In this document: piece after piece, positions 1,390 to 48,060 of the stretch
Position numbering within the stretch: position 1 is the stretch's first letter
Layout of the letters: each line of letters starts with the position of its first letter
Source: Magallana gigas
Taxonomy: Eukaryota
NCBI RefSeq assembly: GCF_963853765.1
Contig: NC_088861.1
Coordinates: forward strand, 21,548,281 to 21,612,280
Length of the DNA stretch: 64,000 nt
Direction of reading: 5' to 3'
The notes under the pieces: model-generated
Told to the model about the DNA's origin: nothing
Database searches by the model: none
The model's input: only the letters and a program-made list of their open reading frames with translations
Position numbers and translations under genes: made by a program

Positions 1390-1445
1390 GGGAGAGCTTC
1401 GCTCTCACGGGCCCGAAGGGCCCGTGAGAGGGCTTCGCCCTCTAT
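1390..1445. repeat. Cluster of three consecutive GNA-triloop hairpins
   Basis: gagagc-TTC-gctctc, acgggccc-GAA-gggcccgt and agagggc-TTC-gccctct. An alternative 13-bp stem ctctcacgggccc/gggcccgtgagag is also possible. Confidence 0.7.
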
Positions 1446-3160: not shown

Positions 3161-4271
3161 TCATGTCTCTAAAAAGAGATTTTCCATTAATATTCAATCT
3201 CCATTGTTTGCTTAAGGAATCTATTTAAAAATAAACTGTACATGCAGATCTGAAAGAAGAAAAAAATATATTTAAAAAGACGATAAAATTATGTTTTTAT
3301 ATACATGTATATCTATCTTCTTTTCAAATAAAATGCTAGCCTTATACTACGTCAATTTAAAAAATATATCTATTTTTTTAACTGACACCAATCTACGCAC
3401 TACATCATTATAATTTATAATTAATATAATCTAAGAGATCTATAGACTACATGTATACGTAAAGCATTTATGGATCTATGTACAATATATTAAAAACTTC
3501 ATTTGCTCTGTGGTTTAGACTAACCGAATTTTTTTTTCTAAGATAATACACGATTTGGGGGGGGGGGGGGGCAACTACCCTCAAATTTTTTTTATCAACT
3601 TAAGATATCTATTTGATTAAACATAAAGAAACAAATATCCATTAGCAAAAACAGAATAATAGAGTTGATAAACTGATAAAAAAAATCCCAAATTGAAATT
3701 CGTAACAATGGATTCTTCTATCAAACGATTCTTAGGGTACCTAATTTGCCTGATAGGGGGTATGAGTGTCCCTCTTCCATTTAATTAATATATCCTGACA
3801 TAGGTCTAAATTAAATCATTGATCAAACATCATAAATATCATTCGTGATTAGACCATGTTGGCGATCTGTGCGGAACCAAAGCGAATCAGTGCTAGTTTT
3901 TTGGTTTTCGGGGGGGGGGGGGGGTGGACGGAATGACAACAAAATTTTCTGGCTTTTATTTCATTATGAAAATTAGGATTAGATCAAATAGTTGTATATT
4001 TTCATGATTCATCTCATACCCCAAAATAATATTTTACAGAATCAATATAGATCCATCTCTAAACAGTATGTACATAAAGTAAATTAATTAACTGTACATA
4101 CGATGCAAAACACATTTATGTACTCACGTCTAGCTCTCACTGGAAATCTACATGTATTTTTGCTCGTGTATATATCAAGAGAAATTTGATTGGTTGGTGA
4201 TATCAAGCGCGTAACTTCAACGAACTTTTAGCGCGCAAAACATTTCGATCGGTCCTGGAGATCAGTCAAGA

Positions 4272-6589: not shown

Positions 6590-6860
6590 ATATTTAAATG
6601 ATTGTCGTCGATTAAACATCCTGCATGACAGGTACAGCTGCCTGATTGATGACCGTCGGTGCCTGGTAAGATACCAATACCCACTGCGTGTACATACATA
6701 TTTTTTTTTCATGAAAGCATGGCATTTCGAACGAATGCATCTCTACAGGCTAGCGCAAACATCGTATTTTGAAAGAGTGTGCGGGGGGGGGGGGGGGGGG
6801 GGTTAGAAGAGCAGGCCGACCAACCGAAAATCAAGACGAAAAACAATAAACTAAAACAAT
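6590..6860 (+). repeat. SINE-like repeat family E, copy 1, with a T-arm-like hairpin and an expanded poly-G
   Basis: Homologous to 63440-63640. Contains gcatt-tcgaacg-aatgc, a tRNA T-arm-like stem-loop. The 20-nt G run here corresponds to gagagggggagc in the other copy. Confidence 0.45.
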
Positions 6861-7682: not shown

Positions 7683-8313
7683 AATAATCAAAGTACTGAA
7701 GTACTGACGGGAGTTGATTTTATCGATGATCATTTATTTTAAAATCAGCTTATCTTGCATGACAATTAGTTTCTAGTCTGTATTTGAATTACACAGTTTT
7801 TTATTAAATGAATTTTAGACTTTTCTGACAAGAATTTCGAGAAACCTCATATGAATCATGTGCAATATTTAAAGATAGATTTCAAACTATGTATAAGTAA
7901 TTAAAGCAATTCTAAAAATGTTAGGGATCCAAGCACTATTGATATCGAACTCTAGTCGCGTTCAACCAGACTCTCGGCTGTCTCCGTTAATCTCCGACAA
8001 GCAAGAGAGCCTTTCTGCTTCTCGTAGATTTACGGAGACAGCCGAGCGTTTGGTTTAACGAGGCTATATTTAACTCTGGCGTAGGAATACACGAGACTAT
8101 AAAAATATCTTAGTTTTTCGTATTATATAAAATCTGACTTTTTTCAAAGTGTTTTATTGATAAGTTTCCTTAAAAAACAATGGTTCAGCATACATTACTT
8201 TGAACTTTTCTATTATTTTCAAGAACTAAGTCTTGTGCTTATAGGTCCAGACACTGTTTCACTTTCGGTTTGCCAGAGTAACTGCATAGGAGAGTTGATT
8301 AAAATCAACTCCC
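7683..8313 (+). repeat. Dispersed repeat family A, copy 1 (carries foldback MITE copy 2)
   Basis: Homologous to 50927-52043 across both sides of the foldback element. Possible short TIR GGGAGTTGATTTTA. Confidence 0.6.
7953..8066. mobile_element. Foldback MITE, copy 2 (inside repeat family A, within the MULE-remnant intron)
   Basis: Same arms with a few substitutions. Flanked by tatcgaactc and tatttaactc, an 8/10 target duplication. Confidence 0.75.
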
Positions 8314-11275: not shown

Positions 11276-11376
11276 TAGTCTCGTTCAACCAGACGCTCGG
11301 CTGTCTCCGTAAATCTCCGACTCTCTGCTCGTCGGAGTTTTACGGAGACAGCCGAGCGTCTGGTTGAACGAGACTA
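11276..11376. mobile_element. Foldback MITE, copy 3, with a perfect 10-bp target duplication
   Basis: Element TAGTCTCG...CGAGACTA is flanked on both sides by AGTTCACCAG (11266-11275 and 11377-11386). Confidence 0.85.
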
Positions 11377-11401
11377 AGTTCACCAGGTGCCGGGTTAACC
11401 C

Positions 11402-13096
11402 TGTGTCATATAATATTTTGATACTGCGAAATATTGAACCCGGGTTCAATATATTATGCGATATTATGAACCCGGGTTCAAAAAATCGCTGCGATATATT
11501 GAACCCCCCCCCCTAAAATATCGAACCCCCTACTTATTTCCAATTCCCTTTGGAGAGGGGGTTCAGAATATTATGGCTGCGATATTTTGAACCCCCCTCT
11601 ATTTTCTATTGCTATTAGAGAAGGGGTTCAAAATATTATGACTGCGATATATTGAACCCCCTTCTTATTTCCAATTCCCTTTGGAGAAGGGGTTCAAAAT
11701 ATTATGGCCGCGATATTTTGAACCCCCTCTCCAAAGGGATTTGGAAATAGGTTGGGGTTCAATATATCGCAGCCATAATATTTTGAACCCCCTCTCCAAT
11801 AGCAATGAAAAATAGAGGGGGGTTCAAAATATCGCGGCCATAATATTTTGAACCCCTTCTCCAATGGGAATTAGAAATACACATAGAGTTAGGGGGTTCA
11901 ATATATCGCAGCCATTATACATTTTGAACCCCCTCTCCAAAAGCAATAAAAAATAAAGGGGGGGGGGGTTCAAAATATCGCGGCCATAATATTTTGAACC
12001 CCCTTCCAATGGGAATTGGAAATAGGTTGGGGGTTCAATATATCGCAGCCATAATATTTTGAACCCCCTCTCCAATAGCAATGAAAAATAGAGGGGGGTT
12101 CAAAATATCGCGGCCATAATATTTTGAACCCCCTCTCCAATGGGAATTGGAAATAGGTTGGGGGTTCAATATATCGCAGCCATAATATTTTGAACCCCCT
12201 CTCCAGTAGCAATGAAAAATAGAGGGGGGTTCAAAATATAGCGGCCATTATATTTTGAACCCCCTCTCTAATGGGAATTGGAAATAGGTAGGGGGTTCAA
12301 TATATTGCTGCCATAATATTTTGAACCCCCTCTCCAATAGCAATGACAAATAGAGGGGGGTTCAAAATATCGCGGTCATAATATTTTGAACCCCCTCTCC
12401 AATGGGAATTGGAAAGAGGTAGGGGGTTCAAAATATCGCGCCCATAATATTTTGAACCCCCTCTCCAAAAGCAATGAAAATAGAGAGGGGGGGGTCAAAA
12501 TATCGCGGCCATAATATTTTGAACCCCTTCCAATGGGAATTGGAAATAGGTTGGGGGTTCAATATATCGCAGCCATAATATTTTGAACCCCCTCTCCAAT
12601 AGCAATGAAAAATAGAGGGGGGTTCAAAATATCGCGGCCATAATATTTTGAACCCCCTCTCCAATGGGAATTGGAAATAGGTTGGGGGTTCAATATATCG
12701 CAGCCATAATATTTTGAACCCCCTCTCCAGTAGCAATGAAAAATAGAGGGGGGTTCAAAATATAGCGGCCATTATATTTTGAACCCCCTCTCTAATGGGA
12801 ATTGGAAATAGGTAGGGGGTTCAATATATTGCTGCCATAATATTTTGAACCCCCTCTCCAATAGCAATGACAAATAGAGGGGGGTTCAAAATATCGCGGT
12901 CATAATATTTTGAACCCCCTCTCCAATGGGAATTGGAAAGAGGTAGGGGGTTCAAAATATCGCGCCCATAATATTTTGAACCCCCTCTCCAAAAGCAATG
13001 AAAATAGAGAGGGGGGGGGGGGTCAAAATATCGCGGCCATAATATTTTGAACCCGGGTTCAATATATCGCGGGGTTCAAAATATTATATGACACCG
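11402..13096. repeat. Foldback-like element or satellite array: 131-bp dimeric unit of palindromic 65/66-bp subunits, with terminal inverted repeats
   Basis: Period 131 bp, for example ttcaat at 12034 and 12165. Each subunit is a dyad: gaaccccctctcc...agaggggggttc plus aaaatatcgcggccataatatttt. Orientation flips near 11730. The two ends are inverted repeats of each other: start tgtgtcatataatattttga, end tcaaaatattatatgacaccgg. Confidence 0.8.
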
Positions 13097-14787
13097 GTAC
13101 CCAAATGGAACGTAAAATGACCCAAATTGACCCAAATGGAGCCCAAATGGAAACAAATGAACCCAAATGGAATCACAAATGGAAACAAATGGAAATTGAA
13201 TGGCATAATTGAAGATTTTATTTAATAATTTCAATCATTATTTGATGAATAATCAATAAATATAAATTCTAAAACGACATTTTCTTGTGTTGTTAATGAT
13301 TTTTTATTGATATATGAATTTATATATAACTATAAATAAAACTGTTGATATATAATCATATCGAAATATCTTTAAATTATAACAATATAATTCAAATATT
13401 TATTTTCGATCTTGGTTAAATAAATCCACAATGAACCAGCAACAATTGCCAACATGGTTCTAGATCAAATATCGGACAGATTGTTGCACCAGTTTTACTT
13501 CCCAGATGCCAACGACACTGCCGTCAGGGCAAGCGGTGATGGGGATTGCCTGTTCAACGCCGTGTCCACATTGATGATTTACTCAACCATAAAATGTGAC
13601 ATCAAATGTGACAAACCAAATAGTGACTTGTGAAAAATCATTATAATAATAAAAACACCAATTTATGACTTTTTTCATAAAAGAACTTATTAATATAATT
13701 GTTCTTGAGTAAGATTGTTTGAGGTAACTGAGTCCGGGCCCTGGTAGGGCGTCGTGTTTAACACGATAGGAACAGTTTCTTAATTTAATACAGTCTGATA
13801 TTTCTGTTTGTACAACGATGTAGTTACAATATTAATATATGATTTATTAATAGTTTAATGGTACCAAGTGCTGAAAATATTTGATGTAGAATTATAAGAA
13901 AAATGTTATTCTATCTAGGGAAATATGCATAAATAATAGTTGTCTTCTAAATATAGATGTAAAAATGTATATAAGTTAGTTAGATGGCAAATTATTGTTA
14001 TGCATGTTAAATAATTTAGGGGCTGTAAATACATGTACAGTGCTGTTCTGTTGTTTCTTTTAATAGTGCATTTAATCATTCAAATAGTAGCTCAAACCAA
14101 TCCTGTAGTGCATGTTTTGATATTATGTTTTTTGTTTGCTTATACATGTAAAGTATGTGGTTCATTTTTCATGCATCAATTTTTGAATTAAGTTTTTGAT
14201 TTTCAAATCGATTTTTGGGCTAATTTTTTTTTAAGGTCTTATGAAATTCTAAGTAACCATTAATTATTTTAACATACATATTTTATTTTTAAACAAAAAA
14301 ATTTTTTTTTTTTAATATTCTGCTCGGAAATTAGGCCCTATAATGTTTACGTTTAATTTTTCAATTCGTTCTTTTGACTTTAAATATTTTTATTTGTAAT
14401 TATTTCAATTTGTTCTTTTGGCTTTAAATATTTTTTATTTCAAAATTATGGCCTCCACGTGGCAAGAGCTGGACAGCGTTATACTACTTATAACGGCAAA
14501 CAATCCCATAAATAGATTAAAAAAAATTAAATCATGCATTTAAATCGTGAAACAAATTTATAAGGCTACATTATCTAATTCTTTTTCGATTTGGTCAAAA
14601 ATTGTTGTTCAATGTTTTTTGTTGTTGAAAATTTTCAATAAAAAACTCATTTATTAAAAATAATGATTGAAATTTTTAAATAAAATCTTCAATTATGCCA
14701 TTCAATTTCCATTTGTTTCCATTTGTGATTCCATTTGTTTCCATTTTGGTCATTTTACGTTCCATTTGGGTCCATTTGGGTAAATCG
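13097..14787. mobile_element. Non-autonomous TIR element, family B (CCCAAATGGA-rich termini), copy 1, left end truncated
   Basis: Ends are ...cccaaatggaacgtaaaatgacccaaatt... and the inverse ...ccatttgggtaaatcgacgcaccc. It has no ORF. Its left terminus lacks the terminal GGGTGCGTCGATT and abuts the foldback-like array. Confidence 0.7.
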
Positions 14788-16497
14788 ACGCACCCAAATG
14801 GAGCCCAAATGGAAACAAATGGAAACCCAAATGGAATCACAAATGGAAACAAATGGAAATTGAATGGCATAATCGTAGATTTTATTTAATAATTTCAATT
14901 ACATGATGAGTAATCAATAAATATAAATTCTAAAACGACATTTTCTTGTGTTGTTAATGATTCTTTATTGATATATGAATTTATATATAACTATTAATAT
15001 AACTGTTGATATATAATCATATGGAAATATCTGATTCAACCATCATATGTGACATCAAATGTGACAAACCAAATACCACCGAATGTGATAAACCAAATAG
15101 TGACTTGTGAAAAATCATTATAATAATAAAAACACCAATTTATGACTTTTTTCATAAAAGAACTTATTAATATAATTGTTCTTGAGTAAGATTGTTTGAG
15201 GTAACTGAGTCCGGGCCCTGGTAGAGCGTCGTGTTTAACACGATAGGAACAGTTTCTAAATACAGTCTGATATTTCTGTTTGTACAACGATGTAGTTACA
15301 ATGTTAATATATGAGTTATTAATAGTAAAGTGGTACCTATAAAAACTTATTAATGAAATTGTTTTAGAATAAGATTGTTTGAGGTAACTGAGTCCGGGCC
15401 CTGGTAGGGCGTCGTGTTTAACACGATAGGAACAGTTTCTAAATACAGTCTTATTTCTGTTTCTACAACGATGTAGTTACAATGTTAATATATGATTTTA
15501 TTAATACCGAGCGCAGCGAGAGGCGGGCGAAGCCCGCCTCGCGAAGCGAGGATTAATGGTAACACGTATATATAAGAAAATCAGTGAAAAATGAAAGTTG
15601 AATCAGGGGTACTAAGGCCCAAAATAATTTCTTCCAGCCCTGGGCGCCGCCATATTGGCAGCCATTTTGTTTTTAAAAAGTTAGTTCGATCATTGATTGA
15701 CTGGTACTTATTGATGTTTATTGCCCCTAAACTCAATTAAAATGTTCCAGTGTTTCAATGGAAGGTAATTTTAATTAAAAGAAATAAAAGAGGACACCAG
15801 ATAAGTTCCAATAGTGCTTTAATCAAGAAACACGACTAGGTGTATGTATGTCTTATCAAATTATCAGATGGAAAATAAAAACATTAACATCAAGGAACTG
15901 ATCTTTTAGATACTGAATAAAGTATTCAATTTTATTACCGCGGCATTTATATGAATTAAATCGATAAACAATGAAAGAAGAAGTTAAAAAAAGTTCGGAA
16001 TAATAAACGTAACTCTCTTCGGCTATTTCCGAAGACAAAACGTTGTACGTTTTACGTCTGAAAAATGACGTCATAATGTAGACAGAGCACGCGACGTTTA
16101 GTAAACTTTGGCTAATGATTTGAGTAGGCAACCAGGCGAACCCTACTGTGTGCGTTTCATATAAATTTAATTTGTTCTACAAAAATCAAACTGCACAGTG
16201 TGAAATCTGCGCTCGGTCCAACGGTCACACCGTTTATATATTAGTTAAGTGGTACCAAGTGCTGTAAATATTTGATGTAGAATTATAAGAAAAATGTTGT
16301 TCAATGTTTTTTTTTTAAATTTTCAATAAAAAAAACTCATTTATTAAAAATAATGATTGAAATTATTAAATAAAATCTTCAATTATGCCATTCTATTTCC
16401 ATTTGTGATTCCATTTGGGTCCATTTGTGCTCCATTTGGGTCCATTTGGGTCATTTTACGTTCCATTTGGGTCCATTTGGGTAAATCGACGCACCCT
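14788..16497. mobile_element. Family B element copy 2, head-to-head with copy 1, containing an internal duplication and a nested 727-bp insertion
   Basis: Starts aaatggagcccaaatggaaac, shares internal sequence with copy 1 (15040-15500 matches 13560-13870), and ends gggtaaatcgacgcaccc at 16497. It is interrupted at 15509-16235. Confidence 0.55.
15509..16235. mobile_element. Unclassified 727-bp insertion inside family B copy 2, starting with GAA-triloop hairpins
   Basis: Absent from the homologous site in copy 1 (ttattaata|gtttaatggtacc). Begins CCGAGCGCAG followed by hairpins ggcgggc-GAA-gcccgcc and cctcgc-GAA-gcgagg. The inverse CTGCGCTCGG lies near the other end, which also contains a TGACGTCA motif. 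Confidence 0.45.
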
Positions 16498-18884: not shown

Positions 18885-19795
18885 GGTGCATCGATTTACC
18901 CAAATGGAACGTAAAATGACCCAAATGAACCCAAATGGAAACAAATGGAAATTGAATGGCATAATTGAAGATTGTATATATAATAATTTCAATTATTATT
19001 TTAAATATATTGAGTTTTTTTAATTGAAAAATTTCTGACCAAATGGAAAAAAGAATTTGATAATGTAGCCTTATCAATTAGTTTCATGATTTAAATACAT
19101 GATTTAGATATTTTTTTTCGAATCTATTTATTGGATTGTTAGCCGTTATAAGTAGTATAACGTTGTCAAGCTCTTGCCATGTTGAGGCCATCCTAATAAA
19201 TATTGAAAGCCAAAAGAATAAATTGAAAAATTAAACATATAAATTATAATTTCCGACCAAAAAAAGATTTTTATGTTTTAAAAATAAAATATGTATTTTC
19301 AAATGATTATAATAGTTACTTAGAATTTCATATGACCTTAAAAAAATTCAGTCCAAACATCGATTTATTTTAGAAATCAAAAAGTACTTCAAAATTTGAT
19401 GCATGGAAAATGAACCACATACTGTACATGTATAAGCAAACAATACTAACTTATATACATCTATATTTAGAAGAAAACTATGGTACTTTATTTTCCAATA
19501 TCAAAAATAAATATTTGAGTTATATTGTTATGATTAAAAAGGTATCTTGAAATGATTAAATATCAATAGTTATATTAACAGTTATATATAAATTCATATA
19601 TCAATAAACAATCATTAACAACACAAGAAAATTGTTGTTTTAGAATATTCATATTTATTGATTCTTCATCATATAATTGAAATTATTACATAAAATCTTC
19701 AATTATGCCATTTAATTTCCATTTGTTTCCAATTGAGTTTCCATTTGGGTTTATTTGGGTCATTTTACGTTCCATTTGGGTAAATCGACGCACCC
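18885..19795. mobile_element. Family B element copy 3 (complete, 911 bp) with 9-bp target duplication, in RPL24 intron 2
   Basis: Termini are ggtgcatcgatttacccaaatggaacg... and ...cgttccatttgggtaaatcgacgcaccc. Flanked by CATTTTTCT on both sides (18876-18884 and 19796-19804). Confidence 0.8.
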
Positions 19796-22537
19796 CATTT
19801 TTCTATTAGTGGATGAACGTAGTTTAAACACAAAGGTATTTATTATTTTCGAAATATCAAGCGAAGAGTGGTGGAAGCAAAAGCTCGGGATAGAGTATAG
19901 CTACTCAATCATACTTTTGTTTTAAAAGGGCATTTGTACAGGATATCCCATAATAGCTGATACCATTAATTCTATGAATAACTTTTGATTAAGTTAATTT
20001 GACAAAAAATTAAATTTAATTGATCTGATACATTCACACATTTTATACATTAAATGTTTTGTAATTCTGTGAGTTAAATGACAAATAAAAATCAGTCCTT
20101 GTACTTCTGTGTATTTTGGAGGCATTAGTGCAACCCTTTGACCCAATTACAACCGTTGTGTAGCGATTCTGTTTAATTTTGTAGACAACTGTAAACAAAT
20201 GGTTTTATAATTATTTTAGCAATAATTTGGCAGTATTATTAACTAATTACAAGTTTCAAACTAATAGTAATGTCAGCATGAAAAGTAATAAACATCAGTT
20301 GTAATTTTCAATGCACAGTATCACCTGTTTTTATAACCCATGAAGATAAGACAGTCGCAAGTTCCTAATCACAAAAGGGTTTAACTGAGCATGTGAGAAC
20401 GTCTTATGAATTTGATGATAATCATTTTATTGCCTTTGAGTTTAATTAATTAACACAATCGTAAACTCTGCATACAGGGCGACTTCAACTTCTCTTTCGG
20501 AGGAAACTCCGGCAAAGTTGCCGATCACAAAGCAAGTCGTCCTCTAGGTTGGTCACTGTATAATAATACTTTAGTCTTTTAATGGATATTGGATAATAAA
20601 AGGATATCTGTCACATGACTATCAATGATAACGACTTACTATCGATTGTCACCGACCTGCTGCCTTCAGCGATGATTTTTCGATATTCGGCGACTATCGT
20701 AACAACACTAGAGGATTACCTGTGCACCTGTTAACCCTTAGCTGCCTCACCTGACAATTGTCGCACCGAAATTTCAGGTCTGCCACTGCTATGCGCGACT
20801 ATGGTCGTTTTTCCGAGAGCGAGTTATCTAAGGTTTCCACAAGCCTCGCTTTGAGCAAAAACACGATGGCTATGATTGGTCAATTGATGTGTTCGGAAGG
20901 TTTCTAGAGTTTTGCAGAGTTTAAAATAAAGGCTATAGAGCAGTAAACTTCCAAAGAATGTTTTGAATTTGTAGCCAAAGTGGCAAAAGTAGAGTGAAGC
21001 CACGAGACACAAATTTTGGAACTTTTTTCACGGGGATAGCAAAGACGAAAATACTGTTGATGGATTTAATCCTGCAGTACATAACTTAGGAGATGTTAAT
21101 TTATTGATTTATGTGTCTTTAATGAACTTTGTGCCAAGAAATGACCGAGAATTTGATGCCGATCTGGAGGTAGGCTAGTCGCGTGTTGATCCACCGCCAT
21201 TGAATATCCCATCCCATTCACCAGAGAGGAAAAATTAAACACTTAAATGGAGGATTATGAACCTTTATCGTGTCTAAATTAAATTTTTAATGATATTATG
21301 TTTATGGAAATTGTTGTTTAATTGATCAACATCTCTACCGAGAGATTGTGCAGTCTGAGAATGTAAACCAGAACAACATAAAAAAAAAAGCATTGATAAA
21401 GTGTTTCATGTATTTCTTTATTTTTCAGTAATTGTTTACCCAATTTTCAAAATTAAACGAATAAAATTGAATCTCACAATGTATGACTTATTGATATACT
21501 AAAGAACTTTTACAGTCATTTGGGTTCTCAAATATGACAATTGAAGAATGGAACAATGAAAGGCATTAATTTTAATTGATTTTTACATTTGAACATACCT
21601 AGATTGATATATACAAGATAAATGAGGAATATGAGCATTGCATTGAAATCTTCAATATTTTCTCTCGCATTTTAAATATATATAAAGTTTGGTAACTGTA
21701 GCAATAAATATATAGTTGCTGTGATATATTATTTTAAACTCTATGGTCAATTACCATTAATTGTGAATAATTAATTCAGCAGTGGCAGCCATCTTTGCGA
21801 AAGTTAAAGCAGCAGCCTAAGAGTTAAGTGACACCTCCGGATATATATTGTTTTCTTTGGTGTTTCAGAGTAAAATCTGGATGTTAAAAGGTCTTTCTTA
21901 TTACTATATAAGGCCTATGCATTACTATATATGCAACTGATATAAGAAAAACCGGAAGTATTAGTAAAAATTAAATTAGACAAAAACATGTCATACTAAG
22001 ATCACGGTAGACAGTACTTTGATGGATTTTGATATATTTAAGCTACATAGCAGCTTTTTGAGGCCATTTGTCTGAATGAATGAGAAAATAAGTTATGTAG
22101 AGCCCTGTCAGTTTTAGAACATATTAAAGAAAATGCTTTGTTGCTGAGATAAATCATTGAAAATATTAGATATTTTGCAAGTTTAAGATTATTTTAAAAA
22201 GTTTTATGTTAAAAAAATGAGATGTATTAGAACTGTCCACCAATTGAGTATTGTTGCCCATTTTTCTCTATTTTATGATGATAGATAGATAGATACTTTA
22301 TTTCTAATACTGGGCCCTCTTGGGCATATAAAGGTAATAAAGAAAATAATGATAAAAAATAAATAAAAAAATACATACACACATACAAGGAAAGGGAGGG
22401 TTTCAAAATGATAGTTTATATTTATGTTGAATAAAAGATGAGTCAAAGTAGGAATCTATTCAATTTTCTATTTGCTCAACAACTAAAAATTCTGTGAGTG
22501 CTAATTCTCATATATAATAGTAACCATCATGTTGTAG

Positions 22538-28060: not shown

Positions 28061-28067
<7 letters not shown>

Positions 28068-28097
<30 letters not shown>

Positions 28098-28140
28098 AAT
28101 TGGTCTTCGTCCGTCGTCGTGCGTTCGTGCGTCGTGCGTT
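28068..28140 (-). repeat. Inverted-orientation terminal module (perfect palindrome plus (CGTC/CGTG)n) bordering the 168-bp satellite
   Basis: aggtcacctgagtcactcaggtgacct, then gtcttcgtccgtcgtcgtgcgttcgtgcgtcgtgcg, the reverse complement of a GACG-like repeat. A related motif actcaggtgaccgttaaggccaattggcc recurs at 30205 on the far side of the array. Confidence 0.55.
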
Positions 28141-28199
28141 AACAATTTTACATTTTTAACTTCTTCTTGAAAACTACCAGGCCAATCGTTACCATTTTT

Positions 28200-30060
28200 G
28201 GTGTGAAGCATCTCTATGGTAAGAAGAATCTAAATTGTGAAATTCATGGCTCTACCACCCCTGGGGTGCCACGGGCGGGGCCAAATATGCAAAAAAAGCC
28301 AAATTTTCAAAAATCTTCTTCTCTACTCCCACGCATGTGAGGAAAAAACTGGTTGCATGGTTATGTTGTCCATGAAGCCCTCTACCAAAATTGTGAAATT
28401 TATGGCCCCTGGGTCAGGGGTTCTGGCTCTAGGGTGGGGCCAATATGGCCATATAGTAAAACTGTATTTAACCTTAGAAAATCTTCTTCTCTACTACCAT
28501 ATATTTTTAAAAAACTTAATGCATGATTATGATGTCCATGAAGCCCTCTACCAAAATTGTGAAATTTATGACCCCTGGGTCAGGGGTTCAGGATCTAGGG
28601 TGGGGCCAATGTGGCCAAATAGTAAAAATGTATTAAATCTTAGAAAATCTTCTTCTCTACTATCATACATATTTGTCAAAAACTAAATGCATGATAATGA
28701 TGTCCATGAAGCCCTCAACCTAAATTGTGAAATTCATGACCCCTTGGTCAGGGGTTCAGGCTCTAGGGTGGGGCCAATATGGCCATATAGTACAAATGTA
28801 TTAAATCTTAGAAAATCTTCTTCTCTACTCCCATATATATTTGTCAAAAACTAAATGCATGATCATGATGTCCATGAGGCCCTCTATCAAAATTGTGAAA
28901 TTAATGACCCCTGGGTCAGGGGTTCAGGCTCTAGGGTGGGGCCAATATGGCCATATAGTAAAAATGTATTAAATCTTAGAAAATCTTCTTCTCTACTACC
29001 ATATATATTTGTTAATAACTAAATGCATGATTATGATGTCCATGAAGCCCTCTACCAAAATTGTGAAATTCATGACCCCTGGGTCAGGGGTTCAGGCTCT
29101 AGGGTGGGGCCAATATAGACAAATAGTAAAAATGTATTAAATCTTAGAAAATCTTCTTCTCTACTACAATATATTTTTGTTAAAAACTAAATGCATGATT
29201 ATGATGTCCATGAAGCCCTCTACCAAAATTGTGAAATTCATGACCTCTGGGTCGGGGGTTCAGGCTCTAGGGTGGGGCAAATATGGACAAATAGTAAAAA
29301 TGTATTATAACTTAGAAAATCTTCTTCTCTACTACCATATATATTTGTCAAAAACTAAATGCATTGCTATGATGTCCATGAGGCCTTCTACCAAAATTGT
29401 GAAATTCATGACCCCTTTGTTAGGTGTTCAGGCTTTAGGGTGGGGCCAATATGGCCATATAGTAAAACTTTTTTAAATCTTAAAAAATCTTCTTCTCTAC
29501 TCCCACACATGTGAGCAAAAATCTGAATACATGGTTATGATGTTCATGAGGGCCTCTACTAAAATTGTGAAATTCATGACCCCTTTATTAGGTGTTCAGG
29601 CTCTAGGGTGGGGCCAATATGGCCATATAGTAAAAATGTTTTAAATCTTAAAAAATCTTCTTCTCTACTCCCACACATGTGGGCAAAAAACTGAATACAT
29701 GGTTATAATATCCACAATCTCCTTTACCTAAATTGTGAAATTCATGGCCCCTGGGTCAGGGGTTCAGGACATGAAGGGGGGGGGGGGGCGCAATATAGTG
29801 TTAATGCATATAATGTTTAAAAATTTTCTTCTCTATTCTCACACATCTGTATAAAAAAACTGACTTATAATTATGTTTACCAGGAAGTCCTCTACTGAAA
29901 TTTTAATTTTCATGTTCCCCTCAAGGATGGGTTTTGACTCTAGGACAGGGCCAAAATGGATGTATAGATGTTAATGCATATAACGCTAAAAAATTATTTT
30001 CTTTACTCCCACACATCTGAAAGGAAAACTGAATTCATGATTTTGTAGACCAGATCTTTT
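28200..30060. repeat. Satellite array with 168-bp unit, about 11 copies, degenerating at the right end
   Basis: gatgtccatgaagccctctaccaaaattgtgaaatt recurs at 28531, 28699, 28868, 29035, 29203, 29371 and 29539. ORF-track ORFs here are translations of the repeat. Confidence 0.85.
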
Positions 30061-30414
30061 AGTTTTTCACCAAAATAATAGGTTTCACAGTTCTTTTTGA
30101 AATGAGGTCGTCATTACAAATTTATTATTTTTTTACTCCAGTATGAAACCTAATTAATCAGATGCATATATGAGACTCCATGACAAGTTTTAGTATGGGA
30201 TATATGCTACTCAGGTGACCGTTAAGGCCAATTGGCCTCTTGTTTCTTTGGGCTGGTTGATTTTAACAGGGCTGACAAATTATACTAGCTGTCAGCCCTG
30301 AGAGTCTAGCTAGTTTTTTGAAGAGTTTAAAACACTGATAACAGTTGTAGAAATATTTGATGTTGACTTAGACTTGTGAAATTCACTTATTGGTTTCTGT
30401 TCTTTAATTTTTAG

Positions 30415-31900: not shown

Positions 31901-32373
31901 ATCTTCCAAAGTAAAGGGTTTCTGATCCGCTCTGCTGTACATAAACCCTTGACCGAATAGGCAGAGTTTGACTTGATTAGAAACCTCCCACGTTGGTTGG
32001 TGTCATACAAGTTTGCATGATCCAAGAAGAAACGATGTTTCAATAATGATGTTAATTGTGAATTGATCAATGTTGAACCGTTGTCAAATAAATTAGAGAC
32101 AAATAGTAAGTATTTGACATACTGATATCGGTTTTTAGTCTGAGTGAATCCATATTTTCTACGAATTTGATTTTGTTCATGGGAGCAGCCATATTGCTAT
32201 ACTGTTTCTGTTTATAAAGCATTCTCTGATTGGTCAGAACAAGAGGTCACAAAAGTTTAAAAATTAGTACTCTCACTAGATGGCGTAATCGTTAACCTGC
32301 ATATGTGTTGTCTTTTTCGGTCAAGGGTTTATGTAGAGCGAAGCGGATCAGAAACCCTTGACTTGGAAAGATG
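31901..32373. mobile_element. MITE (473 bp) with about 50-bp TIRs and a perfect 9-bp target duplication AACTTCACC, in RPL24 intron 4
   Basis: Left end catcttccaaagtaaagggtttctgatccgc, right end gcggatcagaaacccttgacttggaaagatg. AACTTCACC lies at 31892-31900 and 32374-32382. Confidence 0.8.
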
Positions 32374-38539: not shown

Positions 38540-39205
38540 TCCCCCATCTTCTTTGAAACAGTGCAAAATCCGTGACCAAGAAAGAGCCAATAACTTCCGA
38601 TATTCTACAGCAAATTGTGAAACGTAACGGGACGGGAAGTAGCATTTTACCGGACATTCGAATTTCATGTATGTGTTTATTAAGTTATGCAGCTTTTTGC
38701 GTTTTTCGGACTGGTCAACTTAAAACACTCTGACATCGTATTTTATGAGGATCATCTTTTTTTGTTCATTTCTAAGAGCAAAACGGACAAATACAAGACT
38801 GGAAGTAATGTTTTTGTTTCTAGGACAGATAAAGTAGCATGTCCGTATATGTTAAAATTATATTTGAAAATTGCTGATATTTCTTCAGATTCTGATTGTT
38901 TTATTTTCAGGGCAGTTACTTATTGTAAGAAATCTGTTGAATATAAATTAAGAGATTCTGGACCATTGTTGTTTAGTAGAGCTAGAGTATTATTGCTTGA
39001 AGCATTAGAAAATGTTGGTGTAGATAAGTCCAAATTCGGGCTTCATAGTCTTAGGTCTGGGGGCGCTACCGCGGCTGCCAATTCTGGTGTGAGTGACAGA
39101 CTGTTCAGGAAGCATGGCAGGTGGCGTTCCGACAATGCTAAAGATGGTTATGTGCATGAAATTGTGAAGTCATTAATGTCTGTGTCCAAGTCTTTGAATA
39201 TTTGA
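38540..39205 (+). pseudogene. Tyrosine recombinase fragment (phage-integrase fold; Crypton/DIRS-like), with a frameshift
   Basis: ORF 38687..39205 contains HSLRSGGATAAANSGVSDRLFRKHGRWRSDNAKDGYVHE, giving the H-x-x-R, HGRW and terminal Y catalytic signature. The upstream segment ...PITSDILQQIVKRNGTGSSILPDIRISCMCLLSYAAFCVFRTG is in another frame. There is no RT nearby. Confidence 0.6.
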
Positions 39206-39854: not shown

Positions 39855-40941
39855 TGTTACAGTCTTTGTTTGAAATAACTGACAACAAAGATATCTGTAT
39901 GGTTCGTTTTATTTGTATCCGGACACAGTGACTTTAAAATTTGCAATGTATATTTAAGCCCTGAAATATCATAAAACAATAATATAATTTATATCAAAAT
40001 ATAACATTAGTACAATTTATATGTATTTCCATCAAGATAATATTTTTACATTATCTTACTATAATTGTACTTAAACATTTAGCGGGAGGTAACTCTTATA
40101 ATATACATGAATTACATTTCTCCAAAATAAGTCATAAAATATATATTAATCAGATAAAAAAATATTTAAAAACACTTTCTCACCATTCTATGGGAACAGG
40201 CTCATACACCGATTGCGTGGTGAGATTAAATTGACATTGACTGATTCTGTAATATGAACAGAATAATTCTAAAAATATTTATTACTGAAGTATAATCTAA
40301 TTGATCTTATAAATGACCAATTTAATCAAATATCTGATCATCATAAAATTCTTATATACAATTGATTTGAGAATCAATTAATACTATAATAAATAAACCA
40401 AATATTGATCTTTACACTGTATTCCATATAAAAAAATATCTTTTCATTCCAATTCATTCATACTCATTAGTTTGTGATCATGGACGGAATTAATGTTTTC
40501 TGCAATTTATAGGATAATCAATTTATTAGTAGTAAGTGTTATAGGATATTAGTATACTTAGTATAACTTACCAGAAAAAGAGCAAGGTCTGGTCCAAAAT
40601 AAATTTACTTCTCAATATAAATATAGTCTGTTCTAGTCAATGTCCAGACAAAGATTGTCAAACTTGGCGGTAAAACACATAAAGCAAAATATACAAACCA
40701 ACCAAATTCAACCTGACACAAACAACCAATAAAAACCAAGATCACAAATATCCACTGACCAACTCATGATCAAGTACTGCCCTAAGGGTATATATTGTAC
40801 ATGTGTATGAATTAAAAGAAAGGGTGGATCTAACTTTTTTATATGTGTAATGTTTAGATGTATCAATTACAATAACTTTATTTATTTATATTACAATAAC
40901 TTTATTTATTTATTCAAATCAACAATTTTCATACTCTTACA
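39855..40941 (-). repeat. 3' LTR of the gypsy element
   Basis: Direct repeat of 48061..49147. Ends with ...CA and is followed on the element strand by the purine tract GGGGGGAGAG. Confidence 0.9.
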
Positions 40942-40951
40942 CTCTCCCCCC
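40942..40951 (-). other. Polypurine tract GGGGGGAGAG immediately upstream of the 3' LTR
   Basis: Plus strand ctctcccccc abuts the LTR start on the element strand. Confidence 0.5.
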
Positions 40952-41049
40952 GGTCGCAGAATGACTTCCACGTCATTCAACTCGGAAGCTGCATATATCT
41001 GAAGAGTAACATGGCATAAAATACATATATTTACAATTTAAAAAAAATA

Positions 41050-44000
41050 TCATGTATTAGAACATGTAGAAGCAGACACAATGTTAAGTAAAGCCATCTG
41101 GCATCTACTTCGGTCAATGTCTCGTAATGAACCATCATTCATCAACCCTTTCACAAATACTGCTCTTTGTAGCCAATCTGGTTGTGTCTGGTTCATCATG
41201 ACAAACTCCTTTGTCCATGCTGGCATTTTTCTTTGTCTGGTAGATCTTCTTGGGGCTGGAGTAGGTATATCGACATTTTCTCTGGAAGGCATTTCATCTT
41301 CAGAATCATCAGATTCATTGATGTCATCATCAGTGCTATCAACATCATGGATGATATTCTCATCATCATCATCATTGTTGACATCATCCTCTGGTTCATC
41401 ATCATTGATGATCTCTTCAGGTTGGTTCTCAGGCTCTCTATCCTGATGGGAAGCGTCCTCCCCTGAACCAGCTGCTGAAGCTTCCTCAGTTGTAGATTGA
41501 TCGTCATCATCTAAACTGGGAGTAACTTGGGAATTTTCATTTCTAAATGCAGAGTTATCTACATAAGAAAATTCACTGTCACTATCTGAATCATTCTCAG
41601 TAATAATGCTTACTGGTTCTGCCTTCCTTCTCTTTCTAGGAGTAACTGGAGGAGGAGAAGTACTTCTTGGAAGCTTTGTTCCGATAGGTAGAAGCACATT
41701 TCTATGAAGAACTCTAGTTCTTCCTTCTCCATCCTCACGTCTGACTTTATAAACCGGAATGTCATCATTTGCTTTCGCTAAAATGACATAAATATCATCT
41801 TCCCATTTATCAGCAATTTTATGTTTGCCGTCGTATGCCACTTTCTTGACGAGAACTCTGTCACCTTCCTCTAAAGTGATGGCTCTTGCTTTTATGTCAT
41901 AACGGCATTTCTGGTTCTGCTGAGAAGATTTTATTGCTGTTTGTGCCTGTCTGTAAGCATCTTGCAGTCTTTGCTTCAGCTCGGATATGTACTTAGTTGT
42001 ACACTTATCCTCAGAATGGCTGCTGGAAAATCCAAAGACCACATCTACTGGCAAAACTGGTTCTCTTCCAAACATTAGATAGAATGGTGTGAACCCAGTT
42101 GTATCGTGTCTAGTAGAGTTATATGCGTGAACCAGTGTGTTTATATGCTTTTTCCAATTAGCTTTCTGAGCGTTATCTAATGTTCCTAGCATTGATAATA
42201 ATGTCCTATTGAATCGCTCTGTAATACCATTACCCATAGGGTGATATGGCGTTGTCCTGGATTTAGAGATGCCAAATATGGAGCATAATTCCTTAATGAT
42301 GTTGCTGCAGAAATTTGTCCCTTGGTCCGAATGAAGTTTAGCTGGAATCCCGTAATGAACAATAAAATGGTTATAAATAGCTTCTGCTGTTGTTTTGGCT
42401 GTTTGGTTCTTGGTTGGCACGGCAATTGAATATCGTGTGAAATGATCGGTTATGACTAAAATGTTTTGTATTCCTCCTTTCGATGGTTCAAGAGTGAGAT
42501 AGTCCATGCATACAAGCTCTAGTGGCTCTGATGTTCTGATGTTGACCAATTCTGCTCTCTCATTGCTGGTCTTGCTCTTAATGCATCTTTCACAGGAGTT
42601 GATCCAATCAGAAACATCACGCTGCATCTTTGGCCAGTAAAATCTTTGCCTAATTAAGGAGAGAGTCTTATCTCGCCCTAAATGACCCATCTTGTTATGT
42701 AAGTATTCCAAAACAGTGGGATACACTGATGCAGGAATTACATATTGCTGATGAGTATTGTCATCTACTTTGACTTCTCTGAGTAAAATACCATCTTTTA
42801 CTCTAAGTTTGGCAAAGTTCCTGTGGTAAACAAAATCATCTTCAGTAATAAGTGTCTCTCGTTTGGGTCTAATACATTCCTGTACCTTGTTTTTCCAAAA
42901 ACTAACAGTAGGATCTGTGTTTTGGATTTCCATGATATCCAAATACTTTCCAATATCTGTACAAGGTTGTACTTGGTTGCAAATAGCATCATCTATAGCA
43001 AGAGATTCTGCATATGGCTGTCCAGTTGCAAGCTGGCAAATTGCCTTAATGGTGTCACTAGATACTGTTTCCACTTCCTTTAATCTGGATAGTCTATCTG
43101 CATCTATATTTGTTTTCCCTGGTTTGTAGATGATCTTGAAATTAAATGAAGCTAATGCTGAAATCCATCGATGTCCAGTTGCATCCAATTTTGCTGAAGT
43201 TAAAACATAGGTAAGGGGATTATTGTCGGTGTATACTACAAATTCTTTGCCTTGAAGGTAATCTGAAAATTTTTCTGTGACTGCCCATTTAAGTGCCAAA
43301 AATTCCAGTTTGTGAGTAGGATAATTCTTTTCAGATTTACTCAATCCTCGACTAGCATATGCTATAACTCTATCCATTCCATCCTGCTCCTGATATAGCA
43401 CTGCGCCTAGTCCTGTCTGACATGCATCGGTATGGAGCTTAAAAGGTTTGTCGAAGTCTGGGTAACCTAGGACGGGTGGTGATGTAAGTTTCTGCTTAAT
43501 GAGGTCAAATGATGTTTGCTGTTCCTTCTCCCACCTCCACTTTGGATCCACTTTCTTACTTCTTGATTTTTTTCCTGTGGCCATGATATCTAATAAAGGT
43601 CTAGCAATTTTAGAGAAATCATGAATAAATTTTCTATAGTATCCTGCAAACCCTAAAAATTGTCTTACCTCTTCAGGATTCTGTGGAATAGGCCAGTTTT
43701 TAACTTTAGCAAGTTTATCAGGGTCTGGCTCAACCCCATGCTCGGACACAATGTGTCCTACATATTTAACCTTCTTCATAAGTAAGGAACACTTTTTGGG
43801 AGAAAGTTTAAGCCCATAATCTCTAATTCTCTGGAAAACTTGCTGAAGGCGATTAAGATGTTCCCTGAAAGATTTAGAAAATATGATTAAATCATCTAAA
43901 TATACAAAACAAATTTTTAGATGAAGGTCGCCTAAACATTGCTCTTGAAGACGCTGATAGGTTGCAGGGGCGTTTGCAAGGCCAAAACTCATGCGGTTAA

Positions 44001-45456
44001 ATTCATAAAACCCAAGTGGACCAACAGTGAAGGCAGTTCTCTCCTTATGCTCCTCTGCAATTTCTATCTGATGATAGCCGGACTTCATGTCTAATACACT
44101 GAAGTAGGTGTTACCTGAAAGAGAATCTAAAATCTCTTCTATTCTAGGCAGAGCATAATTATCTTTGATAGTCCTAGAATTAAGATACCTATAGTCTATA
44201 CATAGCCGCAAGGATCCATCATGCTTTCTAACTAAAACTACGTTAGATGAAAACGGAGAATGAGATGGTCTGATAATGCCTGCAGCTAGTAAATCCTTGA
44301 TGTGAGTACGGACTTCCTCAACCAATGCTGGTGGTACTCTCCTGTACTTCTGCTTAAAAGGTATCTCATCAAGGAGTTCAATTCTGTGCTTCACTTTGTC
44401 CGTTGTACCTATGTCTGTTGCTCCTGTTGAGAATATATCCCTGTAAGAATTCAACAAATTCAAACAGTCCTGTTTTTCATCTTCTCCAATATCATCTGGG
44501 AGTTGAATTTTGGATATAATATCCTCAATTTGCTCTGAGCTTGACAAAGAGGATTTCTCAACTGTTGTGTCCTCAATAGCAACAGGCTGTATTTCGCAAA
44601 TCACTCCTTTTGGGGATATTGAAATAGTCCTGGTTGTTATGTTGTTGATGGTAACAGGCATTGTTTGACACTCTTCATACACATACTGATGCAGTGTAGC
44701 TTCTATGTCTACATCAGATGGAATGCAGGATTTTTCAGATTGCTGCATCATGACAGTTACTTGATGATAAGGAATCTTCTTATCCAAGTATCCAAGAATG
44801 GTCACATGACTGTTCGGAGGGATGATAACTCTATCTGTCTCAGCACTCTTTACTAATCCTAATACATAACCATGTCTGTGTAACTCCCTCTCTCTCAATG
44901 CAATGCATCTGAATGCTAAATACCATGGTGTGTAAATGGCTGCATCCTGCAGAAATCTTGAGCCAAACTCCTGTTTTGTCACATCCATTAGGTTCTGTAA
45001 GATGTTTGTTCCTATAAGCACTGGTACATGTGCATTATAATTGCTCTTGGGAACAACTAAAAACAGACAATCATTTAGTTTGTTCAAAGATGGAATACCA
45101 AATGGTGTTAAATCAACACATACATAGCCAAGATAGGGCATCAGTTGACCATCCGCACACTCTATATTGATAACGTCATCCAGTGAATGAAGCTCTACAT
45201 CTGAAAGGTACTGATTATAAAATGCTTCGCTTAGAGTGGATACTGTTGCTCCTGTATCTAGAAGAGCTGTACATTGTACATCATTGATGGCCACTGATAT
45301 TTCATTTGGTTTTCCAATTAGTTGTTTTTCTCTGGGACCCTTGATTCTCTCACCAACCCCTTGTCCCCAGGTGCTGACGTGTTGTAGTTTAAAGCCTGGC
45401 GCCTGTGGTTGACTAAAACTCTGCATCCCACAGCGATATGGCCTACCTGTCCACAT
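41050..45456 (-). CDS. Retrotransposon pol polyprotein (protease, RT, RNase H, integrase)
   Basis: 1468-aa ORF carries ALLDTGATVS (aspartic protease), YFSVLDMKSGYHQI and FVYLDDLIIFS (RT YXDD), DACQTGLGAVLYQ (RNase H), and HX3H...CX2C zinc finger plus the D,D,E core of an integrase. The order PR-RT-RH-IN is gypsy-like. An acidic D/E-rich C-terminal extension follows. Confidence 0.9.
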   Translation of the reverse strand: MWTGRPYRCGMQSFSQPQAPGFKLQHVSTWGQGVGERIKGPREKQLIGKPNEISVAINDVQCTALLDTGATVSTLSEAFYNQYLSDVELHSLDDVINIECADGQLMPYLGYVCVDLTPFGIPSLNKLNDCLFLVVPKSNYNAHVPVLIGTNILQNLMDVTKQEFGSRFLQDAAIYTPWYLAFRCIALRERELHRHGYVLGLVKSAETDRVIIPPNSHVTILGYLDKKIPYHQVTVMMQQSEKSCIPSDVDIEATLHQYVYEECQTMPVTINNITTRTISISPKGVICEIQPVAIEDTTVEKSSLSSSEQIEDIISKIQLPDDIGEDEKQDCLNLLNSYRDIFSTGATDIGTTDKVKHRIELLDEIPFKQKYRRVPPALVEEVRTHIKDLLAAGIIRPSHSPFSSNVVLVRKHDGSLRLCIDYRYLNSRTIKDNYALPRIEEILDSLSGNTYFSVLDMKSGYHQIEIAEEHKERTAFTVGPLGFYEFNRMSFGLANAPATYQRLQEQCLGDLHLKICFVYLDDLIIFSKSFREHLNRLQQVFQRIRDYGLKLSPKKCSLLMKKVKYVGHIVSEHGVEPDPDKLAKVKNWPIPQNPEEVRQFLGFAGYYRKFIHDFSKIARPLLDIMATGKKSRSKKVDPKWRWEKEQQTSFDLIKQKLTSPPVLGYPDFDKPFKLHTDACQTGLGAVLYQEQDGMDRVIAYASRGLSKSEKNYPTHKLEFLALKWAVTEKFSDYLQGKEFVVYTDNNPLTYVLTSAKLDATGHRWISALASFNFKIIYKPGKTNIDADRLSRLKEVETVSSDTIKAICQLATGQPYAESLAIDDAICNQVQPCTDIGKYLDIMEIQNTDPTVSFWKNKVQECIRPKRETLITEDDFVYHRNFAKLRVKDGILLREVKVDDNTHQQYVIPASVYPTVLEYLHNKMGHLGRDKTLSLIRQRFYWPKMQRDVSDWINSCERCIKSKTSNERAELVNIRTSEPLELVCMDYLTLEPSKGGIQNILVITDHFTRYSIAVPTKNQTAKTTAEAIYNHFIVHYGIPAKLHSDQGTNFCSNIIKELCSIFGISKSRTTPYHPMGNGITERFNRTLLSMLGTLDNAQKANWKKHINTLVHAYNSTRHDTTGFTPFYLMFGREPVLPVDVVFGFSSSHSEDKCTTKYISELKQRLQDAYRQAQTAIKSSQQNQKCRYDIKARAITLEEGDRVLVKKVAYDGKHKIADKWEDDIYVILAKANDDIPVYKVRREDGEGRTRVLHRNVLLPIGTKLPRSTSPPPVTPRKRRKAEPVSIITENDSDSDSEFSYVDNSAFRNENSQVTPSLDDDDQSTTEEASAAGSGEDASHQDREPENQPEEIINDDEPEDDVNNDDDDENIIHDVDSTDDDINESDDSEDEMPSRENVDIPTPAPRRSTRQRKMPAWTKEFVMMNQTQPDWLQRAVFVKGLMNDGSLRDIDRSRCQMALLNIVSASTCSNT

Positions 45457-48039: not shown

Positions 48040-48057
48040 GTCCCAACGTGGGCGCCA
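48040..48057 (-). other. Primer-binding site TGGCGCCCACGTTGGGAC
   Basis: On the minus strand the 5' LTR is followed by TT then TGGCGCCCACGTTGGGAC. This is complementary to a tRNA 3' end ...GUCCCAACGUGGGCGCCA and shares TGGCGCCC with tRNA-Lys-type binding sites. Confidence 0.6.
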
Positions 48058-48060
48058 AAA

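Follow-up and report, generated by a model that had tools for sequence, protein, structure and literature searches.

Bivalves harbour Helitron2/Helentron elements in large numbers, and these elements seed satellite DNA. These Helitron2/Helentron-type (HLE2) transposons have short terminal inverted repeats together with a stem-loop after the right repeat (PMC11417382). In HINE and Cg_HINE elements, the 5' subterminal repeat and an adjoining complementary inverted repeat form a hairpin, and the 3' end consists of a subterminal repeat followed by a palindrome (PMC4067079, PMC7492417). Canonical Helitrons, by comparison, begin with 5'-TC, end with CTRR-3', have a hairpin 10-12 nt from the 3' end and insert at A/T (PMC4067079, PMC5148889).

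Two Helitron2 elements of the fungus Fusarium oxysporum are of particular relevance here. The 5' ends of FoHeli1 and FoHeli2 read TCAGCC-GAA-GGCTG and TAGTCC-GAA-GGACTT, both elements insert at TNAT^A and have AT-rich T-tails at the 3' end, and joined-end, putatively circular forms of FoHeli1 were detected by PCR (PMC5148889). Hairpins with a GAA loop are also known from prokaryotic replicons, as GCGAAGC-type hairpins mark single-strand initiation sites on the single-stranded DNA of phage G4 and at ssiA of RSF1010 (PMC13037366).

Here, we describe two clusters of GAA/TTC triloop hairpins in a stretch of 64 kb of repeat-rich bivalve nuclear DNA, which is referred to as the window. One of the clusters, site 2, lies at the left end of a transposon whose anatomy resembles that of HLE2 elements, and the other, site 1, shares its hairpin core. 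On balance, we consider it likely that the hairpin clusters are the terminal recognition or fold modules of HLE2 rolling-circle transposons in a bivalve genome. The clusters are of interest mainly because they tie a long-known mini-hairpin motif to the left ends of HLE2 elements in both fungi and molluscs.

Results

Two clusters of GC-rich triloop hairpins

The window has an overall GC content of 34%, and the two clusters comprise the following features:

1386-1446, no strand assigned: site 1, a quasi-palindrome of 61 bp centred on GAA, with three abutting hairpins that share arms
1392-1406, plus strand: site 1 hairpin 1, GAGAGC-TTC-GCTCTC, which contains GCGAAGC on the minus strand
1402-1430, plus strand: site 1 hairpin 2, CTCTCACGGGCCC-GAA-GGGCCCGTGAGAG, with a 13-bp stem and a CCGAAGG core
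1427-1443, plus strand: site 1 hairpin 3, AGAGGGC-TTC-GCCCTCT, which contains GGGCGAAGCCC on the minus strand
15520-15540, plus strand: site 2 hairpin 1, GAGGCGGGC-GAA-GCCCGCCTC
15537-15551, plus strand: site 2 hairpin 2, CCTCGC-GAA-GCGAGG
15527 and 15541 on the plus strand, 1396 and 1432 on the minus strand: GCGAAGC
1413, plus strand: CCGAAGG

An earlier note on this DNA had reported three abutting hairpins with GAA or TTC loops at 1390-1445 and two with GAA loops at 15509-15552. All of them are present and have perfect, GC-rich stems: the former occupy 1392-1443, and the latter were located at 15520-15551. In the middle hairpin of site 1, the stem reaches 13 bp, which exceeds the length given in the note, and its arms are common with both neighbours.

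The note had further argued that such hairpins are not a product of chance, and the null model indeed excludes chance. In 200 first-order Markov simulations of the window (stem of at least 6 bp, GC content of at least 60%), the mean was 0.005 GAA/TTC triloop hairpins per window, compared with five seen; for hairpins with any triloop the mean was 0.57. Elsewhere in the 64 kb, only one satellite-repeat hairpin family and three single hairpins of this kind were found. The heptamer GCGAAGC occurs seven times in the window (1.3 expected), and four of these seven copies lie inside the two clusters. In sequence, the hairpins have the GNA triloop, the C-G closure and the G-C stem of the d(GCGAAGC) type, and all five apices are exact mini-hairpin heptamers (four times GCGAAGC, once CCGAAGG). 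Besides the two clusters, the 64 kb contain no short GC islands of this type, poly-G runs and satellite units aside.

Folding of both regions as single-stranded DNA, a check that the note had proposed, gave structures that beat shuffled sequences with z-scores from -3.6 to -5.8. For site 1, fold energies of -21.5 and -21.1 kcal/mol were obtained (z about -5.5 to -5.8). Neither cluster matches an Rfam family, and based on RNA-family and tRNA searches we rejected a tRNA, an RNA gene or a mitochondrial origin as explanation for the clusters. The 64-kb window as a whole contains no tRNA genes and no Rfam families at gathering score.

We also searched for further copies. Within the window, neither self-BLAST nor hairpin searches allowing up to three mismatches found a second copy of either cluster or of the 737-bp element described below. 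Two genome-contig scans with the clusters or the element gave no match, and about 125 kb of other bivalve-like DNA contained no GC-rich GAA/TTC hairpins. A metagenome scan returned one contig with a GC content of 72%, in which the match did not belong to a hairpin, and the four matches from scans of viral contigs showed no apparent connection to the window. At the protein level, a 58-aa ORF across site 1 had no match, either in an exact look-up or among 1.8 billion protein representatives, and the concatenated six-frame translation of both clusters matched no protein.

A separate hairpin at 32320-32365 (GTCAAGGGTTT...AAACCCTTGAC, 11-bp stem) contains a GCGAAGC mini-hairpin inside its 21-nt loop. 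The string GTGTTGTCT is common to the left flanks of this hairpin and of site 1, probably by chance.

The site 2 hairpins lie at the left end of a 737-bp insertion

Self-BLAST of the window revealed that 13099-14795 and 14792-16496 are adjacent paralogous copies of a repeat of about 1.7 kb. The first copy is uninterrupted at 13846-13865 (...ATTAAT^AGTTTAATGGTACC...) and the second copy is broken at the same point. The insertion and its parts are as follows:

15506-16242, plus strand: non-coding insertion of 737 bp; 15507-16243 is equally possible (1-nt boundary ambiguity)
13846-13853, plus strand: empty site ATTAAT^AG, located in the adjacent paralogous copy of the host repeat
15506-15516, plus strand: left terminal inverted repeat ACCGAGCGCAG, 11/11 complementary to 16207-16217
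16207-16217, plus strand: right subterminal inverted repeat CTGCGCTCGGT, 25 nt from the 3' end
16220-16234, plus strand: 3' stem-loop AACGGT-CAC-ACCGTT with a 6-bp stem, separated by CC (2 nt) from the right repeat
16235-16242, plus strand: T-ended tail TATATATT, the 8 nt between the stem-loop and the element end

When 15506-16242 was deleted, the junction aligned without a gap to the paralog at 13780-13930, whereas a model with a TA duplication costs a gap of 2 nt. The segment is a single precise insertion at TTAAT^AGTT without a target-site duplication. This empty-site alignment bears out the statement of the earlier note that the site 2 hairpins are located at the terminus of a nested insertion.

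The GAA hairpins start 3 nt inside the left repeat of the insertion. As an imperfect stem, the first hairpin extends to 15512-15548 and thereby reaches into the final bases of the left repeat, and since CCTC is common to both hairpins, alternative folds arise. Both loops are GAA on the strand that runs from the left to the right end. A comparable pair of terminal repeats was found in only 0.33% of random 737-bp segments of the repeat-rich window. The 3' stem-loop can be read directly in the sequence and is also present in the fold of the joined ends (see below).

No tandem repeats were detected inside the insertion. Its longest ORF comprises 91 aa and has no homologues, and the element is therefore non-autonomous; a Rep/helicase gene was not identified in the 64-kb window. 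Directly after the hairpins, the 9-mer TTAATGGTA (15554-15562) resembles the downstream flank of the target, which under a single-insertion model is a coincidence with an estimated p of about 0.005.

Several copies of the host repeat of about 1.7 kb are present (13099-16496 and 18885-19799), with subterminal arrays of CCCAAATGG/CCATTTGGG motifs in inverted orientation. The second copy also has an internal tandem duplication of 183 bp (15155-15337 and 15338-15506).

The insertion at site 2 is an HLE2-type element

The identity of the insertion is largely resolved: 15506-16242 is a non-autonomous, HINE-like element of the Helitron2/Helentron type with GAA hairpins at its left end. Its inverted repeats, 5' terminal and 3' subterminal, pair at 11 of 11 positions and have the length expected for HLE2 (about 11-18 nt). 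A stem-loop follows the right repeat near the 3' terminus, the extended stem of the GAA hairpins overlaps the left repeat, and the insertion occurred without target-site duplication at a site whose paralog is empty. The insertion point departs from the HLE2 pattern, being neither T^T, as for Helentrons, nor preceded by TTTT, as for Helitron2, but TTAAT^AGTT (or A^G); the target TAAT^A fits the TNAT^A preference of FoHeli1 and FoHeli2. It is a known kind of transposon end, and the anatomy is otherwise that of an ordinary transposon. A structural signal at the end of a rolling-circle transposon, one of the roles proposed in the earlier note, is supported for site 2 and reaches site 1 only by analogy.

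Two other transposon classes were considered for site 2. A cut-and-paste transposon with terminal inverted repeats or a MITE of the Tc1/mariner type was rejected: the right repeat lies 25 nt internally, the model with a TA duplication aligns worse, and the sequences at the two actual ends, CCGAGCGCAG and ATATATAAAC, differ from each other. There is also next to no chance that the hairpins represent the 3' terminal hairpin of a canonical Helitron (HLE1). Read on the minus strand, they are located 13-15 nt from the element end and thus close to the Helitron spacing of 10-12 nt, but this end reads ...CTGCGCTCGGT instead of CTRR, the opposite end reads AATATATAAAC instead of TC, and the insertion took place at T^A or A^G and not at A^T. 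Moreover, canonical Helitrons have no terminal/subterminal inverted repeat of the sort present here. The termini, AC...TATT or in reverse AATA...CGGT, refute a canonical Helitron; the TC...CTRR ends that the note had suggested looking for are absent in both orientations, and there is no insertion at A^T.

Comparison with described elements

The window contains a canonical element that served as internal comparator:

28066-30237, plus strand: Cg_HINE-type Helentron derivative (compared with PMC7492417)

At its 5' end, this element has a perfect 13-bp hairpin, AGGTCACCTGAGT-C-ACTCAGGTGACCT, and a GTCY microsatellite. About ten tandem repeats of 168 bp in the style of Cg170/BIV160 form its middle part, and the 3' end reads ACTCAGGTGACC-GTTAA-GGCCAATTGGCC, with GGCCAATTGGCC as the 3' palindrome. 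Its ends show the same geometry and spacing rules as those of the site 2 element.

The wider group of HINE, DINE-1 and Cg_HINE elements from insects, mites and oysters resembles the site 2 element in several respects (PMC4067079, PMC7492417): the 5' arm of the hairpin begins inside the repeat, the 3' subterminal repeat is followed by a short palindrome, the elements are non-coding, and their boundaries were verified by a paralogous empty site. In contrast to this group, the site 2 element has neither a microsatellite nor central tandem repeats, and it is not inserted at TT and has no run of T at the 5' boundary. Furthermore, its 5' hairpins are independent GC-rich stems with GAA triloops, whereas the HINE hairpin is formed by the simple complement of the subterminal repeat.

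The C-GAA-G hairpins at the 5' ends of FoHeli1 and FoHeli2 are the most telling parallel to site 2. In both cases, an asymmetric terminal inverted repeat of 11-12 nt is combined with hairpins at both termini, the 5' hairpin has a GAA triloop closed by C-G (CAGCC-GAA-GGCTG in Fusarium), and the 3' repeat and hairpin lie within a few tens of nt of an AT-rich, T-ended terminus (here TATATATT). Insertion at TNAT^A without target duplication is common to both as well. The differences concern the 5' hairpin, which in the FoHeli elements is the inverted repeat itself, whereas at site 2 the repeat, ACCGAGCGCAG, is followed by two larger GC hairpins with stems of 9 and 6 bp, and the 3' stem-loop, which at site 2 is unrelated in sequence to the 5' hairpins. 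In addition, the site 2 element resides in a mollusc and not in a fungus, is only 737 bp long and non-coding, and has no sequence homology to the FoHeli elements.

The mini-hairpins of phages and plasmids act as primase or origin signals (PMC13037366), whereas the clusters described here stand in the context of a eukaryotic transposon end, with no indication of a primase or origin role. With 6-13 bp, their stems are also much longer than those of the d(GCGAAGC) and d(CCGAAGG) mini-hairpins. In the IS200/IS605 and REP/RAYT systems, HUH nucleases of the Y1 type recognise strand-specific subterminal hairpins on single-stranded DNA. These systems share with site 2 the strand-specific hairpins near the ends and the insertion without target duplication; unlike site 2, they are bacterial, belong to another transposase class, use imperfect hairpins and guide sequences, and lack the inverted-repeat architecture.

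Site 1 as a candidate left end of a second element

Site 1 sits in a stretch of 241 bp between two other mobile elements:

335-1330: non-autonomous transposon with terminal inverted repeats, left of site 1; ends CAGTGGCGTAGC..., inverted repeat CAGTGGCGTAGCTACCTTT (17/19)
1577-1680: palindromic repeat of 104 bp, right of site 1, with three further copies in the window

The left-hand transposon is flanked by a 5-bp target duplication, GTCTG, at 330-334 and 1331-1335. With this duplication of its own, and ending 60 bp away, it was rejected as the element to which site 1 belongs. At 415-456, this transposon contains GC-rich hairpins whose triloops are AGA and GTA.

According to a repeat search, the two arms of site 1 (1386-1414 and 1418-1446) are 76% complementary. 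The 11-mer GGGCGAAGCCC is common to the minus strand of site 1 and to site 2; outside the hairpin core, the flanks of the two sites are unrelated. Self-BLAST found no paralog of site 1 in the 64-kb window, and no inverted-repeat partner was detected within 62 kb to the right with up to three mismatches per hairpin. A scan for 12-mer inverted repeats around site 1 yielded nothing but AT-rich matches at chance level, and neither an element boundary nor an empty site was found in the window. Two repeat pairs, a 10-nt inverted repeat (1369-1378/6687-6696) and a 15-nt direct repeat (259-273/1538-1552), were dismissed as they are at chance level. A terminal hairpin of the T/Y-shaped parvovirus type (ITR), in which a long outer stem encloses two small palindromic arms beside viral genes, was likewise rejected: site 1 has three abutting hairpins, and only TATA would serve as the outer stem.

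Loop orientation at site 1 is mixed, with two of the three loops reading GAA on the minus strand. The flank on that strand, ...TTTTTAT|AGAGGGCGAAGCC, corresponds to TNAT|A (here TTAT|A), which is also the form found at site 2, and on account of both features the minus strand would act as the top strand. By analogy with site 2, and given that no partner was found on the right, site 1 probably represents the left end of a further, minus-strand element of the HLE2 type. The body of this putative element and its partner end would extend leftwards beyond the window edge, with about 390 bp of pre-insertion sequence left in the window.

Discussion

Alternative explanations for the hairpin clusters

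Three other explanations were weighed against terminal modules of HLE2 elements. An unlikely one accepts site 2 as a transposon end and regards site 1 as unrelated, namely as a stand-alone cruciform palindrome, for instance a regulatory or fragile-site element beside a TATA-like box, or as the remnant of a head-to-tail element junction. This would agree with the lack of a partner repeat or paralog in the window, the symmetry of the 61-bp quasi-palindrome with its mixed loop orientation, the TATAAAA that site 1 directly adjoins and the unrelated flanks beyond the hairpin core. On the other hand, both sites have the same composition, loop type and GGGCGAAGCCC core; with only about 0.005 such hairpins expected by chance in a window, it is unlikely that they arose twice independently within 64 kb, and TATA-like strings are common in DNA with 34% GC. 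Alternatively, the GC-rich clusters of 45-55 bp could be small insertions themselves, comparable to the GC clusters or double-hairpin elements of fungal mitochondria or to bacterial REP sequences, with the site 2 cluster placed beside a separate insertion of about 680 bp. Direct repeats of 6 nt do flank both clusters (TCTATA...TCTATA at site 1, ATTAAT...ATTAAT at site 2), the sequence that follows the site 2 cluster, ATTAATGGTAAC, is similar to TTTAATGGTACC of the host target, and no larger element was detected around site 1. It is the occurrence of TTAATGGTA in the target together with the bracketing 6-nt repeats that keeps this explanation alive, which we nevertheless hold to be quite improbable. 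The two outer flanks account for all host sequence with no bases missing, and two insertions would therefore require an extra duplication of 12 nt of the host. The exact GC-rich pair of inverted 11-mers at the outer cluster edge and at 16207-16217, the 3' stem-loop and the terminal geometry would be left as coincidences. Moreover, the right-hand TCTATA of site 1 is partly within hairpin 3, and no further copies of the clusters exist in the 64 kb.

Finally, the clusters might have arisen as by-products of repair or replication, in which 3' ends with GCGAAGC or CCGAAGG fold back, are extended and switch template, thereby producing GC palindromes. The exceptional stability of the mini-hairpins, the perfect stems and the shared arms (1402-1406, 1427-1430 and 15537-15540, each part of two stems) would agree with such a process. 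However, with the exception of the 11-mer at 16207, the AT-rich flanks offer no template for the GC-rich arms, and a manual attempt to derive site 1 through simple successive fold-backs did not yield the observed sequence. Fold-back also leaves the insertion without target duplication, the 3' stem-loop and the match to Helitron2 5' ends unexplained, and we regard it as very improbable.

Possible role of the hairpins in transposition

In HLE elements, the Rep/helicase nicks and transfers one strand. If the two clusters are HLE2 end modules, the 737-bp element would be mobilised in trans by a Rep/helicase transposase (HUH, Y2) that acts on unwound single-stranded DNA. Owing to their C-GAA-G triloops, the left-end hairpins could snap into an unusually stable fold on the transferred top strand, while the complementary TTC loops would not fold in this way, and both the end and the strand would thereby be marked for the nuclease. 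In published measurements, d(GCGAAGC) melts at 76.5 °C, and the T-loop variants examined have melting temperatures of about 33 °C or lack a transition (PMC13037366); these figures refer to heptamers and not to the hairpins of site 1 and site 2. Given this difference, the top strand should fold quickly and stably, and the bottom strand should not.

If the ends are joined in a circular intermediate, pairing between the inverted repeats would enclose the 3' stem-loop beside the GAA hairpins. An in silico junction of the right and left ends folded accordingly, with an 11-bp repeat stem enclosing the 3' hairpin and a GAA hairpin stacked beside it (-31 kcal/mol). In the literature searched, we found no biochemical studies on end recognition by HLE2/Helentron transposases.

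The GAA-loop left ends of site 2 and of Fusarium Helitron2 suggest that what marks the initiating end is a triloop hairpin of very high and strand-asymmetric stability. A more far-reaching reading, which is speculative and in our estimate unlikely, is that the C-GAA-G mini-hairpin is a deeply conserved, strand-specific module for the HLE2 Rep/helicase of both fungi and molluscs, with site 1 as a minimal triple-hairpin unit. Within this same joint reading, and with equally little likelihood, site 1 would be either a junction of joined right and left ends or a miniature element that consists of termini only. If true, this would provide a compact substrate for testing end recognition by Helentron-type transposases. 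Apart from this, scans of AT-rich genomes for GC stems with GAA loops can flag HLE2 termini that are missed by searches for TC...CTRR.

Other repeats in the window

Five ORFs of at least 150 aa are present in the 64-kb window. In a Pfam scan limited to these five, the two largest contained gag and pol domains of retrotransposons, one had a sub-threshold match to DUF3915, two had no match, and no viral domain was found. The two largest ORFs belong to the following element:

39855-49147: complete Ty3/gypsy LTR retrotransposon
45318-46607, minus strand: intact gag ORF
41050-45456, minus strand: intact pol ORF

Its LTRs (39855-40941 and 48061-49147) are 1087 bp long and 100% identical, and together with the intact gag and pol ORFs this indicates a very recent insertion. 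The nearest named relatives of the pol protein are from the bivalves Pinctada and Mytilus, with an identity of about 50%, and a Logan transcript/contig from SRR13374887 carries a pol identical to that of the window. Together with the oyster-type Helentron derivative at 28066-30237, these relatives identify the window as bivalve nuclear DNA. As judged by self-BLAST, a patchwork of repeats and satellite arrays makes up the remainder of the window.

Just upstream of the gypsy LTR, an ORF of 172 aa (38687-39205) contains HSLRSGGAT...HGRW, which by eye resembles the C-terminus of a tyrosine recombinase in translation; a Pfam search at E<=0.001 returned no matches for it. The motif suggests a fragment of a Crypton- or DIRS-like element. 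Runs of 13-22 consecutive G, whose flanks are unrelated, recur at 273-304, 3557-3572, 3911-3925, 6785-6804, 13011-13023 and 29777-29789 and could be true homopolymers, element tails or an artefact of sequencing or assembly. A tandem array at 11518-13054 with periodicities of about 66 and 131 bp is flanked by inverted segments (11400-11473 and 13019-13097) and may be another satellite-carrying transposon. Near-perfect, MITE-like palindromes of about 104 bp with arms of 45 nt are located at 1577-1680, 7953-8066, 11276-11377 and 51218-51298, and show sub-threshold Rfam matches to models of miRNA precursors, such as mir-1298 with 44 bits compared to a gathering score of 70.
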